Of a stretch of DNA of 64,000 nucleotides, positions 40,065-48,796 are shown one piece after another. Positions within the stretch are counted from its first letter, which is position 1. Each line of letters opens with the position of its first letter. The notes beneath the pieces were generated by a model. That model was given only the letters and a program-made list of their open reading frames with translations, was not told where the DNA came from and ran no database searches. A program made the translations under genes and the position numbers. Origin of the DNA: a plasmid; sequence record NZ_CP156668.1. One strand, written 5' to 3'.

Positions 40065-41837
40065 TTAATGTGTCAAAAAGTCCGCTATTGGTCCTAATGA
40101 TAGTGCTGGAAAGAAACTAAGCACGCCAATGATTAATACAACGATTATTAACATAAAAACAAAGGTTGGACTTGTAGTTGATAATGTTCCCGAACTACTA
40201 GCAACAATTTTATGCTGTCCCATTTTACCAGCAATCGCCATTATAGCGATAATAGGAAGAAAACGAGAAATGATCATCGCAACAGCTAATAAAACATTGA
40301 AAATAATGGTATTACCATTGAACCCTCCAAAGCTGGAACCATTATTTGCCCCTGCTGATGAAAAAGCATATAAAAATTCAGAGAATCCATGTGCTCCACT
40401 ATTGCTAAGACTAGTTAAAGTACTCTTTAACATTGCTGGAATAGCGCTGCAAGTTAAAATTGCAATTGGCGTTGATAGGCAAGCGATAACAGCCATACGC
40501 ATTTCGTAAGGCCCAATTTTTTTACCTAAATATTCTGGTGTACGTCCTACCATTAGCCCAGCAATAAAAACTGTTAGGATGATAAATCCAAGCATGCCGT
40601 ACAATCCAGATCCTACACCACCAAAAACAACCTCGCCTAATTGCATTAAAGCCATGGGCATTAATCCGCCCAGAGAACTAAAACTATCTAATGTTGCATT
40701 CACTGCGCCTGTAGATGTTGCAGTAGTAACAATACTCCAAACAGCTGATCCAGGAATACCAATTCTAGTTTCTTTGCCTTCCATAGCCAAATTACCAATA
40801 TGAGCTAAAGTGGTCCCATGTTGTTCAACAATTCCTTCAAATATTAACGCAACTACAAACATAATTGCCATAGCTGAGAAGATTGCCCAACCTTCCTTAC
40901 GCCGCTTTAAAGATTCACCAAAGCTAAAACATAGCGCCATGGGCAGAAGAAGCATTGCCGTTGTTTCAATAAAGTTTGTAAAAGGTGTTGGATTTTCATA
41001 TGGATGGGCAGAGTTAGCACCTAAGACCCCCCCACCATTAGTCCCCAATAACTTAATTGATACCTGGGAAGCTTGTGGGAATAACGGTAAGGTTTCTTTA
41101 GTTATAATTTTTGCCCCATCGATTTTGTGATTTTTAATCCTAACTGTATTTTTTTTGACGTTAATTTCAGCCCCATGAATCGCCTGGTTATGTTTATCAA
41201 CGGCAACAGGTTGTACCAAGGTAGCAGTTTTATAACCACCAGTTGTTTGAGGAACACCACCTGCCATGAGCATAATAGACATAAACAAACTAAGCGGGAT
41301 TAAAAGATATAGAAAGATCCTGGTCAAGTCTCGCCAAAAGTTTCCAATTGCTTTTGCTTCTGTACGTTGGATACCTCTAATTAATGCAAAAAGAACCGCA
41401 ATTCCAACAGCCGCAGAGGCAAAGTTTTGAACAGTTAAACCAATCGTCTGAGAAAAATTAGAAAGAGCCATTTCCCCAGAATATGATTGCCAATTAGTGT
41501 TGGTTACAAAACTAACAGCAGTATTAAACGCTAATGACCAAGAAAGCCCCGAAAAATGTTCTGGATTCCCAGGTAAATAATTTTGGAATTTCAAAATACT
41601 AAACAAAACTAAAAAACTAACTAAAGAAAACATTAAAATACTTAGTAAGTAAGTTTTCCAACTCATCTCGCGATTAGACACACGAAAAAATTTATATATT
41701 TTGTTTTCAATTGGTCGGATAATTCTGCTCATAAAATTGTTCTGATCATTAATAATATGGCTGATATACTTGCCTAATGGAATGGCTAATAATAATGGAA
41801 CAATGATATATGGTAAATATTGAGCCCATGTTGGCAT
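40065..41837 (-). CDS. kdpA: K+-transporting ATPase subunit A
   Basis: 590-aa polytopic protein directly upstream of kdpB. Confidence 0.9.
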   Translation of the reverse strand: MPTWAQYLPYIIVPLLLAIPLGKYISHIINDQNNFMSRIIRPIENKIYKFFRVSNREMSWKTYLLSILMFSLVSFLVLFSILKFQNYLPGNPEHFSGLSWSLAFNTAVSFVTNTNWQSYSGEMALSNFSQTIGLTVQNFASAAVGIAVLFALIRGIQRTEAKAIGNFWRDLTRIFLYLLIPLSLFMSIMLMAGGVPQTTGGYKTATLVQPVAVDKHNQAIHGAEINVKKNTVRIKNHKIDGAKIITKETLPLFPQASQVSIKLLGTNGGGVLGANSAHPYENPTPFTNFIETTAMLLLPMALCFSFGESLKRRKEGWAIFSAMAIMFVVALIFEGIVEQHGTTLAHIGNLAMEGKETRIGIPGSAVWSIVTTATSTGAVNATLDSFSSLGGLMPMALMQLGEVVFGGVGSGLYGMLGFIILTVFIAGLMVGRTPEYLGKKIGPYEMRMAVIACLSTPIAILTCSAIPAMLKSTLTSLSNSGAHGFSEFLYAFSSAGANNGSSFGGFNGNTIIFNVLLAVAMIISRFLPIIAIMAIAGKMGQHKIVASSSGTLSTTSPTFVFMLIIVVLIIGVLSFFPALSLGPIADFLTH

Positions 41838-41838
41838 A

Positions 41839-41919
41839 CTATGATTCTCCTTTCACTAGAACATAAATTAGATAAGCTAATAAAAAGATTGTTAAGATCG
41901 TTCCTAAGACCAAAACCAT
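41839..41919 (-). CDS. kdpF: K+-transporting ATPase subunit F (26 aa, not in ORF track)
   Basis: ATG...MVLVLGTILTIFLLAYLIYVLVKGES*, single TM, stop 1 nt before kdpA ATG; SD ggaagtgag upstream. Confidence 0.7.
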   Translation of the reverse strand: MVLVLGTILTIFLLAYLIYVLVKGES

Positions 41920-41951
41920 TTGTCTCACTTCCAATTAATTTTTTAATTTAA

Positions 41952-42230
41952 TCAAGGGTGCTCCATCACGTTAATGCGTTGTTTCCAAAATTTTCTAACA
42001 CTAATAGGAACTTTGTCTGAGAATCCGTAGTCAAATTTAAGATGCTGAGCAGTATCGAAAAAATAAAAAATTGTAACATCTGCTATGAAAAGGTCTCCTG
42101 AAGTACTTTGAATGTAGCCTCCCATCTTTTTTTTAATATCATTATCAATTAAACAAATTATTTTTTCTCGACTATACTGGTCCGAATAATCTTTGTAATA
42201 ATAATTATCAATCATTTTGAACATCTCCAA
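41952..42230 (-). CDS. Hypothetical 92-aa protein, AT-rich, part of the low-GC islet
   Basis: ORF with ggaga SD; no recognisable motif. Confidence 0.4.
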   Translation of the reverse strand: MEMFKMIDNYYYKDYSDQYSREKIICLIDNDIKKKMGGYIQSTSGDLFIADVTIFYFFDTAQHLKFDYGFSDKVPISVRKFWKQRINVMEHP

Positions 42231-42399
42231 AACATATTCAAATTAACTAAAGATATAGTATATGAAAAGGTGTTAAAATGGTGTTAATATTTAAAATCTC
42301 ATGTTAATATTTTGTTAAAAGCATATATTTAATTTGTCTAATCTCATAATAGAAATTTTGACCGATAGCAAATCAATGGTTAATCAGACTAGCAACAAT

Positions 42400-42445
42400 A
42401 AAAAAGGTAGGAGAGAATTATACGCCATTCTTTCCTACCTTTTAT
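42400..42445. terminator. Bidirectional terminator
   Basis: aaaaaaggtaggagagaat-tatacgcc-attctttcctacctttta. Confidence 0.75.
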
Positions 42446-42724
42446 TAGCTCTATACTATTATGATAATGATTGCTGCCTACACAATTAAACCACTGTCAT
42501 TCATAAGTATATTTCCAACTTATGTTTATTAACCTATCCATAACAGTTTATCGAAGAATTTCACTGCCAATCTAAACGTTGCTCTTGGGAAATCAAGAGA
42601 GCGTTACGAATCTAGTCTCAACGTTTCCTTTTTTAACAGTCCTAATGCACGTCTATAACTCCTAGTGTAGTGTAAAAGTGCAAATGAATATTAGGGTATA
42701 CCCTAGTGGCCGTTTGGGGTTAAT

Positions 42725-43555
42725 TTAAAAATTACAATCATTTTGCAATTCTTTGAGTCTATCGTTAAATGGAGTTCTCACAAAGTTTCCCCCATAGAAG
42801 CATTTTCCTTCGTCAGTTGGAAATTGTTTAGCTAAAAAATCGGCAAACGTTTGATTATCAGGATTAGCAATGTACCTTTTACAATTGTCTTTAACGTTTT
42901 GATCGGTCAAAGTAAAATATGGATAATTTTCATTATTGGCTTTATCACATAGGTGTGCAGCGGTATTTACGTTGTCACCAAGAAAGATAGGCTTATTTAT
43001 ACCGCTACCTTTATCTCCAGCTTGTATAACCAGTGCTTCGCCCGTAGCAATACCCACGCCCGCTTTAATGTCAATTCTTCGTTTATAGTGCTTAGAAAAG
43101 AGATTATTTATTATTCCTAATAGAGGATTGAACATAGAGGCTGATTCTAAAGCTTCTATAACATCAGATCTGTCTTTATATTCACCTGATTTATCTTTAT
43201 TTTCAACAAATATTGCTGAAACACAGTCACCAACAATATTTATTTCCTTACAACACTCATGACTTCTTAAAACTGCAATTATTTCGCTAATATAGGATCT
43301 ATAAAATCTGGCTATTATTCTTCTGTCATATCCCTCTTTTGTAATCAGTTTAGAAGAGTTTCGTATATCAATAAAAAAAGCGGTATTTTTGACGTAAGCA
43401 CCATTAGTGTAACTTAATGCGTTATCTAAACTAGGCAAGTAATCCAGATGATCAAATTTATTTGTATCTGTTAGAATCTCTTTTATTACATCTTCAGCTG
43501 TACTTAGATTAAAAGACTTGAAATTAATTGTACTATTTCCCATTTTATTTTCCAT
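42725..43555 (-). CDS. Class III nucleotidyl cyclase (CHD) domain protein; PycC-like candidate
   Basis: FFIDIRNSS (metal Asp), IVGDCVSAIF (second Asp), GVGIATGEALVIQAGDKGS, IFLGDNVNTAAHLCDKA match the conserved cyclase-homology-domain blocks; start probably MENKMGNST (43555) after ggaagga SD. Confidence 0.7.
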   Translation of the reverse strand: MENKMGNSTINFKSFNLSTAEDVIKEILTDTNKFDHLDYLPSLDNALSYTNGAYVKNTAFFIDIRNSSKLITKEGYDRRIIARFYRSYISEIIAVLRSHECCKEINIVGDCVSAIFVENKDKSGEYKDRSDVIEALESASMFNPLLGIINNLFSKHYKRRIDIKAGVGIATGEALVIQAGDKGSGINKPIFLGDNVNTAAHLCDKANNENYPYFTLTDQNVKDNCKRYIANPDNQTFADFLAKQFPTDEGKCFYGGNFVRTPFNDRLKELQNDCNF

Positions 43556-43566
43556 GTCCTTCCATA

Positions 43567-44109
43567 TTAATTGATAGATAGTCCAATAGATGCTATCAGT
43601 GTGACTAGAAAAATTGTCCCAAAGCCTAAACATATAAATTTGATACCAATATTGCAGTTTTTCATTTTTGTATCAGCAATATTGGCATTAACAAATATTT
43701 GATTAACTAGGTCATCATTGGGATTAAAATCTTTGCAGAAGTAATTTTTCATTTCGTTTAGCCCATTTTGAGATATATCGCCAAAAAAAATGTGGGATTG
43801 TTGATGGGAAATGTTTTTCAATCTAGGTATAAGGGTAAAAAATAAATAGAATCCACCAATAAAGACTAATATTAATCCAAATACTAGCAAAAAAATAAGT
43901 ACCGTTAAAAAAATTTTATCTTTGATAAAAAGATAGTGGATACAATTTACTACGACACCATAGAAGCGAGAGTTTATCAATAAAGTAAATAACACCCCAA
44001 TTGCTGATAATAAGACTGAAGCTTTTGTATCTGATTTTTGTATCCAATCTAATTGCTTGTCTAATAGATATTGTAAATACTTGGTTTTTTCACAATTATT
44101 ATCGTTCAT
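43567..44109 (-). CDS. Small multi-TM protein encoded immediately upstream of the cyclase; candidate membrane effector
   Basis: 180 aa; ~30-aa soluble N-terminus, 2-3 TM helices, ~55-aa loop, C-terminal TM; no cNMP-binding domain recognisable; 11-nt gap to cyclase start. Confidence 0.5.
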   Translation of the reverse strand: MNDNNCEKTKYLQYLLDKQLDWIQKSDTKASVLLSAIGVLFTLLINSRFYGVVVNCIHYLFIKDKIFLTVLIFLLVFGLILVFIGGFYLFFTLIPRLKNISHQQSHIFFGDISQNGLNEMKNYFCKDFNPNDDLVNQIFVNANIADTKMKNCNIGIKFICLGFGTIFLVTLIASIGLSIN

Positions 44110-44242
44110 TGCCTAGTCCATCTCTCTTCTTGTATAATTGAGCTTGTAGAAAAGTTAAGACGGTGGCTATTTCCAATCGGAGGTGGTGCTTATGGTGTTA
44201 AACCTTTAAAGCCCATAAATCCTAACGAAAGGAGTAGCCTAA

Positions 44243-44347
44243 GTGTCCGTTGCGGACGCTTTACAATTAATGCTGGCTTTCGGTACCTTTATCGTAGCCT
44301 TAATTGCATTAATTGTTGAGCTGATCAAAAGCCAGCAAAAAAAATAA
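44243..44347 (+). CDS. Type I toxin, holin-like Lpt/Fst-type 34-aa hydrophobic peptide (not in ORF track)
   Basis: GTG start after aaaggag SD (8-nt spacer): VSVADALQLMLAFGTFIVALIALIVELIKSQQKK*; hairpin terminator directly downstream. Confidence 0.6.
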   Translation: MSVADALQLMLAFGTFIVALIALIVELIKSQQKK

Positions 44348-44587
44348 TCCGTCTTAGCTTTGGCGAGCAGATGGATTATTTTTGATCTAATCTATTAAGT
44401 TTGCCACCGTCTTAAACGGTTCTACATGGGAAGTCCTGTTCTAGCAGGGCTTCCTTTTTCTGTTTACATTATAGCATGACTATAATGGACTTTCGACTAT
44501 TTTTAATCAACTTTCTGCCAGTTCTTAGGGAACACATGTTTGCTTTATATGCTACAATACAGGTAAAAGCTAACGGAAGTGATCTAA

Positions 44588-45888
44588 ATGTTTTTTGATG
44601 ATGAACCGCATGGCGTGTTCTTCTTAATCGATAACAAGTCCTTTTATGCTAGTTGCGAAGCCGTTGCCCGGGGCCTTAATCCCTTAAAAGTCCCGTTAGT
44701 GGTCCTGAGCGAAGCTGAAAATACTAATGGCGGGCTCATTTTAGCCACGTCACCCGAAGCTAAGCACTTATTTCATCTTAAAGCCAACGTCTCCCGTAAA
44801 CGTGACTTACCCAATGACCCCAGTTGTGGGTCGTGCCACCGCGCATGAACCTTTATATTCAACGTAATTTGCAGATCAATCAGATCTTTCATCAATTTAC
44901 TACTGAAAAAGAGGTTTGGCCGTATTCAATTGATGAAAGCATTCTTGATATGACCCATACTTGGCGGCTGTTTGGCAATTCCGTTCGCGAAGTGGCACGC
45001 TTGATTCAAAAGACAGTTCGGCAAAAGCTAGGCTTGTATACCACCGTGGGAATTGGTGACAATCCGGTGCAAGCTAAATTAGCCTTAGACCTTTACGCTA
45101 AACATAATCATGAATTGATCGGTGAAATCCATTACGAAACTGTGCCGGATAAAATTTGGTCAATTACTGAATTAACGGACGTTTGGGGGATTGGCCCCCG
45201 TATGGCGAAACGTTTGAACCGCCTTCACATTCACAATATGTATGAGCTAGCCCATACCAACCCTTATTTACTCAAACAGCAGCTTGGCGTCATTGGTAGC
45301 CAGTTATTTGCTATAGCCTGGGGAATTGATCGCGCACAAGTCACGGAACCAACTAAGGTTAAAGGAGCTAGCCTGGGGAATTCGCAAGTGCTGCCACGGG
45401 ACTATTTTAACCAAGCCGAAATTGAAACGGTCATTAAAGAAATTGGGGAACAGGTGGCGGCTCGGCTTCGGCACCACCATAAACTGGCAGGTTGTCTATC
45501 GCTAAGCATTGGGTTTTCCTATGCCGCGGCAGAAGCAGATGGCCGCGGTGGCTTTAACCAGGCTTTAAAAATTGAACCGACTAACGACAATCAAGTTTTG
45601 ACGCAACAATTATTGTGGTTATTCCGTCAGAATTGGGACGGTCAAGCTGTCCGGAATATTGGCGTTTATAGCAGTAAACTAAATGCCAATTCCGGCCAAC
45701 AACTTAATTTATTTGAAACCCCGCGCAACCAAATTCGCCGTAGCCGGTTAAACCAAGTGATTGATGAAATTCACCGGCAATTTGGGTTCACCAAACTAGT
45801 TTACGCGACCAGTTTATTAAAGGGAGGCACCGCTATCAAGCGGGCTTCACTAGTGGGCGGACATAATGGAGGGAATAGCTATGAATAG
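44588..45888 (+). pseudogene. Y-family DNA polymerase (UmuC/ImpB-like) with frameshift in a C4 run at 44818-44821
   Basis: Two ORFs (frame 2 then frame 1) that splice to ...KRDLPNDP|QLWVVPPRMNLYI... if one C is added; N-terminal FFLIDNKSFYASCE typical of Y-pol. Confidence 0.8.
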
Positions 45889-46697: not shown

Positions 46698-47657
46698 TTA
46701 ATTGATAACGTTTTTCAGATCTCCTGATAAATATGCTTTTATATTATCAACAGTCATATGCAACAACCGTTCTCTTGTCTCATATGGTGCCCAAGCAATA
46801 TGTGGGGTAATATAACAATTTTTGGCCTGTAATAATGGGCTATCACTAGCAATGGGCTCCCCTTTAACAACATCAGTGGCGTAGGCATAAATTTTGCCTT
46901 CATCCAAGGCATTCTTAATGTCCGCTTCATTAGCCAATTTGCCTCGGGCCGTATTCAATATAATAACCCCAGTTTTCATTTTGGCAATCGTATCATTATT
47001 AATTAAATCTATTGTTTCTGGTGTTTGGATCACATGCAGACTAAGCACATCAGATTGCATTAATAGTTCATCAAATGAAACCTGCTGAATCCATGATTCG
47101 GTAATTTTCTTAGGACGATGATTATAGAAAATAACTTTCATAGAAAAAGCGTGTCCTATTTTAGCAACTTTTTGCGCAATATGGCCATAACCGATTAGTC
47201 CTAAAGTTTTCCCTTTTAATTCTAATAGCGGTTTTTCCCAAAAAGTAAAATCAGGAGCCTGTGCCCACCGGTTTTCATGAACAAGCTGATTATGCAATCC
47301 AACTTGGCTAGTCACTTCTAATAATAACGAGAAAGTAAATTGTGCCACTGCGTCACTTGCATATGTGGGAATGTTAGTCACCACAACCTTGTTCTGGTGT
47401 GCGCTCTCAATATCAACGACATCATAACCGGTTCCCATGATTCCGATATACTTCAATCGTGATGTTTTGCTAATCACTTCATGATCTAGCGGTGTTTTGT
47501 GTGTAATGACGATATCAGCATATTTAATTCGTTTTATGATTTCAGCGTTATCGTTAACTGGGGTACGATCATATAAAGTGCAGTCGCCTAATTCTTGCAA
47601 GCTTTTCCAATTTAAATCTTTGTTTAGTTCATATCCATCTAAAAGAACAATTTTCAT
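46698..47657 (-). CDS. D-isomer-specific 2-hydroxyacid dehydrogenase (NAD-binding)
   Basis: GLIGYGHIAQKVAKIG Rossmann motif and catalytic-domain layout; 319 aa. Confidence 0.8.
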   Translation of the reverse strand: MKIVLLDGYELNKDLNWKSLQELGDCTLYDRTPVNDNAEIIKRIKYADIVITHKTPLDHEVISKTSRLKYIGIMGTGYDVVDIESAHQNKVVVTNIPTYASDAVAQFTFSLLLEVTSQVGLHNQLVHENRWAQAPDFTFWEKPLLELKGKTLGLIGYGHIAQKVAKIGHAFSMKVIFYNHRPKKITESWIQQVSFDELLMQSDVLSLHVIQTPETIDLINNDTIAKMKTGVIILNTARGKLANEADIKNALDEGKIYAYATDVVKGEPIASDSPLLQAKNCYITPHIAWAPYETRERLLHMTVDNIKAYLSGDLKNVIN

Positions 47658-47671
47658 AGTGTTAAATCCCC

Positions 47672-48796
47672 CTATCTTTTCAATGTTTTAGCTGCATTAT
47701 GTTCTGGTTGTTTAATTGCCGGGTTTTGTTCAGAAAATGCTTGCAGTTGTTTTTGCGTTCGATTACTGATTTCATGGTGTACATCATTTAACTTATTTTG
47801 TAGTTCTGATTTTTGTTGTGGATTAGTCGCTTGCTGAACTTGTTGTTGCAAGCCTTGATAGGACTTATTAAGATCATGGGCTGATAGTTTTTTTAGATCA
47901 TGCTCAGGCTCTTTTGGGGCTTCTTGTAAGCCTAATTGTTTGGTTAAGCCATCGCTAAGTTCAATCACTTTGTTGCTCACTTGCTGAATCTCACTTAAAG
48001 CGCTATGGATTACGGCTTTATCTTTGGCCCAGGTGGCCACGTAACCGAGTGAGTAGTTGCTGGTATCAACGCCAATATTTTGCATGGCAACATACGCAAC
48101 CGCTTCGGCTTGGGTTTCCTGATAGGTTCGTGGCCGATCTTTAAAGGCTGATTTTAAGCCGTGTAGCTGGCTATGCGCATATTCGTGGTATAACGTCTTT
48201 AGTTTCAAAGCATTGTCGGGCTCATCGCCACCAATGACGATTTCATTAGTGCTGGGTTGAAAATACCCCTTAGCCCCATTTAGCGTCGCTAAAGGCACTT
48301 CACTGACTTTAAGGTCGGTTTGCTGGTTTAAATAATCTTTGAACGCGTTATATAAGCTTGTCACATTCTGATGATCGGCCAAATTTTCTTTGACAAAGTC
48401 TTGAGCACTTAACACTGGTTCACCGCTAGTTTGTGCCACATCAAAGACGGGTAGATAGCGATAACCAACTATGGCTTTTTCTTCGGTCGTATCAAGCCTT
48501 TTCTGATCCTCTGGAGTTAGTTTTTTAATAATAGGGGCCGCAATCCTGATCCCTTTTTCTCCTTTATTTACTGATCGTTTAAAATCATTCTGCCATTTTT
48601 TAAAGCCTGCAACTTGGCTGGCACTTGGATTTTGAGAATAGATAAGGTCAATATTACGTTGGCTATACCGGTGAAACTTTGCTACGGTATCAAGATAACT
48701 TTTAAATTTTTCACTATCAGTTAGTTTTAAAATTTCTTTTTCGGCATTTTCGACAAGCTGCCTTTTCCATTTTTCAGTTTCAAATTTACTTGGCAT
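47672..48796 (-). CDS. ArdC/LtrC-like protein (N-terminal ssDNA-binding domain + zincin HExxH metalloprotease domain)
   Basis: KFHRYSQRNIDLIYSQNP...FKKWQ...GEKGIRIAAP N-domain; TLYHEYAHSQLH C-domain. Confidence 0.7.
   Translation of the reverse strand: MPSKFETEKWKRQLVENAEKEILKLTDSEKFKSYLDTVAKFHRYSQRNIDLIYSQNPSASQVAGFKKWQNDFKRSVNKGEKGIRIAAPIIKKLTPEDQKRLDTTEEKAIVGYRYLPVFDVAQTSGEPVLSAQDFVKENLADHQNVTSLYNAFKDYLNQQTDLKVSEVPLATLNGAKGYFQPSTNEIVIGGDEPDNALKLKTLYHEYAHSQLHGLKSAFKDRPRTYQETQAEAVAYVAMQNIGVDTSNYSLGYVATWAKDKAVIHSALSEIQQVSNKVIELSDGLTKQLGLQEAPKEPEHDLKKLSAHDLNKSYQGLQQQVQQATNPQQKSELQNKLNDVHHEISNRTQKQLQAFSEQNPAIKQPEHNAAKTLKR

Follow-up and report, generated by a model that had tools for sequence, protein, structure and literature searches.

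The question raised by this locus is whether two neighbouring plasmid genes, one for a nucleotide cyclase and one for a small membrane protein, form a new kind of cyclic-nucleotide signalling system or belong to one that has already been described. The window analysed here is a 64,000-nucleotide stretch of the plasmid record NZ_CP156668.1, a mosaic plasmid of the Lactobacillaceae whose transfer region lies downstream. A first-pass annotation of the window described the pair as Pycsar-like and proposed a possibly new variant, pointing to a membrane partner too short to hold a cNMP-binding domain (CNBD) and to an unusual gene order. It is shown below that standard profiles match both proteins over nearly their full length, and that size and order are normal. 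The pair is not merely Pycsar-like but is simply Pycsar, as judged from the PADLOC PycC and PycTM profiles, Pfam PF18967 and the RefSeq labels. We assign a probability of about 0.9 to the reading that the two genes, in the order PycTM-PycC, form a canonical Pycsar system acting by abortive infection. The locus belongs to a known family, in which it is nothing out of the ordinary, and public records already carry its annotation; the traits that had been flagged as unusual are those of the family.

The gene pair

The ORF list contains both genes of the first-pass annotation with unchanged coordinates, on the minus strand (Table 1). The 11-nt gap between the membrane protein gene and the cyclase gene, which lies downstream, was also confirmed, and pycTM and pycC are probably read as one transcript. 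The start of pycC deserves a comment. Taken mechanically, its ORF reaches upstream to an ATG at 43633 and overlaps the membrane protein gene. A GGAAGGA Shine-Dalgarno sequence (43557-43563) lies only 1 nt from the ATG at 43555 and 13 nt from the ATG at 43543, and this spacing makes the second Met a plausible start. The second Met is also where the cyclase homologue P0002 begins, and the true pycC product may thus begin at ATG 43543 and have 272 aa.

Table 1. Features of the pycTM-pycC locus and its surroundings (positions in the window)
Feature	Position	Strand	Description
92-aa ORF	41952-42230		Backbone gene
Hairpin + U-run	42403-42443	-	Likely pycTM-pycC terminator; shared plasmid backbone, outside the cassette
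Cassette limits	42714-44128		1.41 kb, swappable, 30.8% GC; based on alignment with the FRG-gene plasmid
pycC	42725-43555	-	276-aa class III-type mononucleotide cyclase
pycTM	43567-44109	-	180-aa Pycsar membrane effector; three TM segments, helical cytosolic loop at about residues 95-153, no CNBD
rli28-type RNA (RF01492)	44123-44309	+	65.8 bits, gathering score 45 (Rfam)
RatA antitoxin RNA (RF01776)	44384-44471	-	86 bits, gathering score 49 (Rfam)
Second strong hairpin	44428-44455		Part of the type I toxin/RatA module
Promoter-like site	44496-44468	-	TG-extended TATAAT
Y-family DNA polymerase gene	44588-45888		Split into two ORFs
319-aa ORF	46698-47657	-	Downstream of the polymerase operon
374-aa ORF	47672-48796		Follows the 319-aa ORF

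The cyclase

The best PADLOC match of the cyclase is the PycC profile PDLC02368 (E 6.7e-70), on which residues 13-269 cover positions 2-232 of 234. Its ten PADLOC matches are to PycC models without exception, with no CD-NTase among them. The generic Pfam model behaves differently. The first-pass annotation had named HMM searches as a check, and would have given up its reading if the cyclase motifs failed to reach significance. By Guanylate_cyc (PF00211) they do fail, there being no match even at E<=1, but by the PycC profiles they are clearly significant. Most cyclase homologues match PF00211, including some at ~50-59% identity to the window protein. NCBIfam searches with the cyclase returned only noise.

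The residues expected of the enzyme are in place. Conservation was scored over 35 homologues with 30-96% identity; F61, R65, S67, G109, D110, G166, G168, G172 and G180 are invariant among them, and D63, G193 and N197 are kept in at least 90%. D63 (in FIDIR) and D110 (in IVGDC) align with the metal-binding Asp pair in the FxD and GD motifs of the structures 8jsz and 7r65, and N197 sits in the GDxVN motif. The cyclase motifs first quoted from the window are therefore present, conserved in the homologues and alignable to solved Pycsar cyclases.

When the family profile was compared with the PDB, the uridylate cyclase 8jsz came first (2.4e-13), followed by 7r65 (1e-10) and 6yii (1.3e-10), with the cytidylate cyclase 8jsf further down. 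The margin is modest, as the solved PycC structures score 53 and 45 bits and the CyaB adenylyl cyclase 40 bits, and ordinary class III adenylyl cyclases rank close behind. A single-sequence phmmer search reached only 6yii, and the profile was needed for the other PycC structures. The AF2 model (pLDDT 89.6, pTM 0.88) supports a class III cyclase fold for the predicted protein. In Foldseek this model matches best to 8jsz, an Anabaena uridylate cyclase (1.3e-14), and to 7r65, a Burkholderia cepacia cUMP synthase (7.5e-14); 6yii was also matched.

A relative of the cyclase is encoded by the Ruminococcus phage NatCom_28274 (PV036439.1, 1979-2650). It is a hypothetical protein with 37% identity to the cyclase over 89% of its length, and it may be a decoy or else a Pycsar cyclase carried by the phage.

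The membrane effector

The membrane protein is a full-length member of the PycTM family. Residues 5-175 align with positions 2-154 of the 160 in the PADLOC profile PDLC02364 (E 6.6e-30), and the Pfam model PF18967, named Pycsar effector protein, covers residues 70-162 with 35.9 bits, above its curated cut-off of 27.2. Hydropathy gives three hydrophobic segments, at about residues 27-57, 56-98 and 152-180, in agreement with the 3-4 TM helices noted earlier. The AF2 model has moderate confidence (pLDDT 74) and is all helix with no strands; its helices span residues 2-44, 47-63, 65-93, 110-125 and 130-179.

Why does this effector lack a CNBD? The absence itself is real. No cNMP_binding match was found in the membrane protein by Pfam at E<=1, and the helical model agrees with this. 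The first-pass annotation took the absence to be exceptional, stating that described PycTM effectors carry a cNMP-binding domain of about 110 aa, but this does not hold for the family. In PADLOC, the PycTM profiles to which the protein aligns end to end have 154-165 positions. When 1.84 billion representatives were searched exhaustively with a profile, 3,215 relatives of the membrane protein passed E<=0.001, of which 938 also passed E<=1e-10; among the best 150 of the 3,215, nearly all are 150-210 aa long and match end to end. A word-index protein search with the membrane protein alignment added just three further relatives. In the literature, PycTM effectors are described as 3TM proteins of the pJV1-spdB3 family, and the CNBD belongs to the PycTIR class (bioRxiv 10.64898/2026.08.12.744502; PMC11224242). 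Because the profiles, the sizes of the relatives and the literature all point to short CNBD-free effectors, a small three-TM PycTM without a classical CNBD is the norm of the family. PycTIR seems to be the effector class that the first-pass annotation had in mind. PycTIR systems share the cyclase family and the signalling logic with the window pair, but their effector combines a CNBD at its N-terminus with a TIR NADase domain, and the window effector has neither. The alternative of a SLATT-like pore protein finds no counterpart in Pfam, whose SLATT families give no match to the membrane protein at E<=1.

It had also been proposed that a PycTM this short could not sense the nucleotide and that a separate receptor would be needed, for example the 92-aa ORF. 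The missing CNBD and the all-helical model would fit such a scheme, as would the fact that the ligand site of 3TM effectors has not been located even with a cryo-EM structure (10.64898/2026.08.12.744502). However, the membrane protein is of normal size for a standard PycTM, and published two-gene PycC and PycTM systems are sufficient for defence (PMC13069673; 10.64898/2026.08.12.744502). The Pycsar loci of related lactobacilli have unrelated neighbours. The 92-aa ORF has no domain matches in Pfam, PADLOC or NCBIfam. The backbone around it is base-for-base identical in an FRG-gene plasmid that has no Pycsar genes, and the ORF is also present in plasmids without the cassette (H19 and H20, both absent from the matches to the cassette alone). 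As the backbone carries this ORF even without Pycsar, it is not part of the system and was ruled out as the receptor. A separate receptor of any kind is thus very improbable.

If PycTM itself reads the nucleotide, where might it do so? Two conserved motifs were found in the cytosolic part of the protein, S105-x-I-x-F-x-D-I and N141-A-x-I-A-x-x-K, in which the conserved residues are S105, I107, F109 and I112 and N141, A142, I144, A145 and K148. We infer from this conservation that the motifs are candidate ligand or interface sites.

The membrane protein also matches PADLOC profiles of CBASS 2TM effectors, with a best E of 5.8e-14. This similarity, together with the generic RefSeq name of the cyclase (adenylate/guanylate cyclase domain-containing protein), could be read in favour of a CBASS-type system or of housekeeping cAMP or cGMP signalling. 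Type I CBASS with a 2TM effector does resemble the window pair in coupling a nucleotide signal to a small membrane effector, but it relies on a CD-NTase that makes cyclic oligonucleotides, and the window enzyme is a class III mononucleotide cyclase with no CD-NTase match. The homology of the membrane protein to the 2TM profiles is the weaker one, with the PycTM profiles scoring far higher. The pair is carried by a rare, mobile, low-GC cassette (16 of 72,556 plasmids), which also argues against housekeeping. Both of these readings can be set aside as extremely unlikely.

Comparison with known Pycsar systems and proposed mechanism

The closest known system is the Pycsar pair of PycC and PycTM (Tal et al. 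2021 via PMC11224242; 10.64898/2026.08.12.744502). The window pair shares with it a cyclase of class III type that stands alone as a single domain and keeps the metal-binding Asp pair, an adjacent PF18967 effector of about 180 aa with three TM segments, the two-gene operon and the mobile, variable context. It differs in its Lactobacillaceae plasmid host, in the residues of the base pocket and in the silence of PF00211. The Liu-DS6 Pycsar system, for which phage defence was validated experimentally, also has the TM gene first and then the cyclase gene, but it lies within a five-gene operon with type IV Thoeris, whereas the window pair stands alone (PMC13069673). The PucsarTM system of EcPucC and EcPucTM likewise joins a cyclase to a 3TM effector of the pJV1-spdB3 family; its cyclases differ in that they make cGMP and form a separate subclade (10.64898/2026.08.12.744502). 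EcPucTM is a hexameric, channel-like membrane assembly with a central channel of ~15 A, and an abortive-infection-like phenotype has been reported for it (10.64898/2026.08.12.744502).

By homology with these systems, a product, a trigger, a ligand site, pore formation and a defence phenotype in Lactiplantibacillus can be proposed for the window pair. Phage infection would activate a PycC homodimer. Its two-metal active site, with D63, D110 and N197, would cyclise a nucleoside triphosphate to a 3',5'-cyclic mononucleotide, most likely cUMP or cCMP. The nucleotide would then act on the three-TM PycTM, probably via the conserved cytosolic helical region, and an oligomeric PycTM assembly would compromise the membrane, with growth arrest or death of the infected cell ahead of phage release. 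No experimental reports on Pycsar in Lactobacillaceae were found in the literature searched. The practical value is modest: the species is used in food and as a probiotic, and an abortive-infection cassette on one of its plasmids, as predicted here, could make a difference to how well starter strains withstand phage. Since PADLOC, Pfam and NCBI PGAP already label the locus as Pycsar, it offers little in the way of discovery.

Product nucleotide

Which nucleotide does the cyclase make? The published specificity residues (PMC11224242) were mapped onto the window cyclase through alignments of its family profile with PDB entries. The UTP-specific BcPycC has Y50, D94 and R97, the UTP-specific AnPycC has F60, K104 and F109, and the CTP-specific EaPycC has F100, R142 and Q144 (PMC11224242). 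The equivalent positions in the window cyclase are F61, N106, V108, C111 and S113. They match none of the three characterised sets, and the sole feature in common is an aromatic residue two positions ahead of the first metal-binding Asp. If a product has to be guessed, cUMP is the first choice, since the nearest structures are those of uridylate cyclases.

These pocket residues also leave some room for another messenger. The cyclase clade of Bacillota and Actinomycetota could keep the same architecture and make a purine or non-canonical cyclic nucleotide, such as cGMP as in Pucsar, in place of cUMP or cCMP. In addition to the mismatch with every characterised specificity set, the bulky D94 and R97, which are said to exclude guanine (10.64898/2026.08.12.744502), correspond here to the small residues V108 and C111, and Pucsar cyclases also pair with 3TM effectors. 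A cyclase of the Pucsar branch would be expected to have guanine-contacting residues, which in PfPucC are E118 and K195. On the other side, both of the nearest solved structures, by profile and by Foldseek, are uridylate cyclases, and a UTP preference has been predicted for the Pycsar-1, -2 and -3 subclades that pair with 3TM effectors (10.64898/2026.08.12.744502). A switch to a purine or non-canonical product is for these reasons doubtful. In its broader form, the proposal is that the PDLC02368-type clade found in Lactobacillaceae, clostridia, Paenibacillus and actinomycetes makes another cyclic mononucleotide, which may or may not be a purine, and that a 3TM partner senses it without a CNBD; judged from the pocket residues, we hold this to be rather unlikely as well. 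If it were true, the pair would offer a compact Gram-positive system in which to study how a 3TM effector recognises its ligand.

Gene order and pairing in relatives

A pair with the TM gene followed by the cyclase gene has been termed "a typical Pycsar system" (PMC13069673), contrary to the earlier view that a TM-first order is atypical, and every arrangement occurs among the relatives. The TM gene lies upstream of the cyclase gene in two assemblies of Liquorilactobacillus (Liquorilactobacillus mali and Liquorilactobacillus oeni). It lies downstream in Paraclostridium, with a second cyclase gene between, and in Mycobacteroides, past a 135-aa ORF. The two genes are convergent in Catenuloplanes and divergent in Paenibacillus. 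A PF18967 gene was thus adjacent to the cyclase homologue in 6 of the 6 contexts examined, with homologues at 30-54% identity. The pairing of cyclase and TM protein is conserved across phyla, and its presence in each of these contexts supports a functional coupling of the two proteins.

A shared third gene was looked for and rejected. Liquorilactobacillus has a 159-aa ORF upstream of PycTM and plasmid pLPBLS41_4 a 158-aa ORF downstream of PycC, but the two are unrelated, and no significant domains were found in either.

The Paraclostridium sordellii locus (L004, 1-6719) encodes a 240-aa cyclase, a second cyclase of 457 aa and a 213-aa PycTM. Two cyclases in one locus are consistent with the multi-cyclase Pycsar loci of the literature. 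The three genes adjoin tape-measure-like and holin genes, because of which the locus looks prophage-borne.

The cassette and its distribution

The AT-rich islet described in the first-pass annotation, at about 30% GC between kdp and a toxin gene, was found where it had been placed. Its GC content compares with 39.0% for the whole window and 38.0% for the kdp genes. It is flanked by kdpA and a small ORF on one side and by a holin-like toxin gene on the other. Alignment with the FRG-gene plasmid CP074423 defines its limits. Identity stops at position 42713, 11 nt before the stop codon of the cyclase gene, and resumes at a TGTATAAT box near 44129-44138. The backbone common to the two plasmids includes kdpA, the 92-aa ORF and the long intergenic region up to 42713, and the cassette itself contains pycTM and pycC alone.

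A query with the cassette only matched 16 of 72,556 plasmid records, all of them from Lactobacillaceae, and a wider query that included the flanks (41800-44500) matched 334. This wider region has 99.9% identity to Lactiplantibacillus plantarum pST-III (NC_014558.2) and about ten sister plasmids. At pST-III-type loci the effector gene is named in RefSeq as Pycsar system effector family protein, next to the generically named cyclase. The context of the pair is thus cassette-like and mobile, and this common Lactobacillaceae plasmid backbone illustrates a cassette swap in which Pycsar alternates with an FRG-domain gene. The slot itself, from the kdpA-side backbone to the toxin promoter, is a cassette-exchange site (42714-44128 in the window; 4169-4894 in L002). 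CP074423 and CP023307 carry a gene for an FRG-domain protein there, and other plasmids carry hypothetical genes only.

Transcription signals and the toxin-antitoxin neighbour

The islet had also been described as bounded by strong terminators, which is only partly borne out. On the kdp side there is indeed a strong hairpin (-25.6 kcal/mol, z -5.4, with 0 of 200 shuffled sequences folding as well) with a U-run, about 285 nt past the stop codon of the cyclase gene, but it belongs to the shared backbone. It was missed by a consensus terminator scan. We infer that it probably ends the pycTM-pycC transcript. The hairpin, which is flanked by A- and U-runs and is apparently bidirectional, is located in the 490-nt intergenic stretch that separates the 92-aa ORF from the cyclase gene. 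The second strong hairpin, on the other side, does not bound the islet as such but is part of a neighbouring module. That neighbour (44123-44471) is a type I toxin-antitoxin module, in which the rli28-type RNA spans the 5' part of the gene for a putative holin-like toxin and RatA is read from the opposite strand. The promoter-like site listed in Table 1 fits the start of RatA.

No convincing sigma-70 promoter was found between the start codon of the TM gene and the divergent toxin gene. In the promoter scan, sites were no more numerous than in shuffled controls and none was well placed for the operon. Might the pair then be silent or decaying cargo, or serve plasmid maintenance or competition instead of phage defence? 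The want of a clear promoter of its own would fit such a role, and so would its place on a mosaic plasmid, adjacent to a type I toxin-antitoxin module and not far from the transfer region, as well as the frameshift in the nearby Y-family polymerase gene. The genes themselves do not look decayed. Both ORFs are intact and D63, D110 and N197 are all present; the cassette differs from that of pST-III at a single position in 1,415 bp, a synonymous change at 43199; and a variant at 86% identity keeps both full-length genes. It is accordingly improbable that the pair is idle cargo or a maintenance device, and a Pycsar defence system remains the preferred reading.

The frameshift in the Y-family DNA polymerase gene is a 1-nt deletion near 44823 relative to pST-III (CCCA-GTTG in the window, CCCAGGTTG in pST-III). 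It splits the gene into ORFs 44588-44848 and 44824-45888; either the gene is a pseudogene or the sequence contains an error. A second variable slot may lie at 46698-48796, downstream of the polymerase operon. The position taken by the 319-aa ORF in the window is occupied by a DUF3800 gene in pST-III and by a gene for a GIY-YIG nuclease in pLPBLS41_4. All three variants precede the 374-aa ORF, the positional counterpart of which in pLPBLS41_4 is annotated as ArdC-like.
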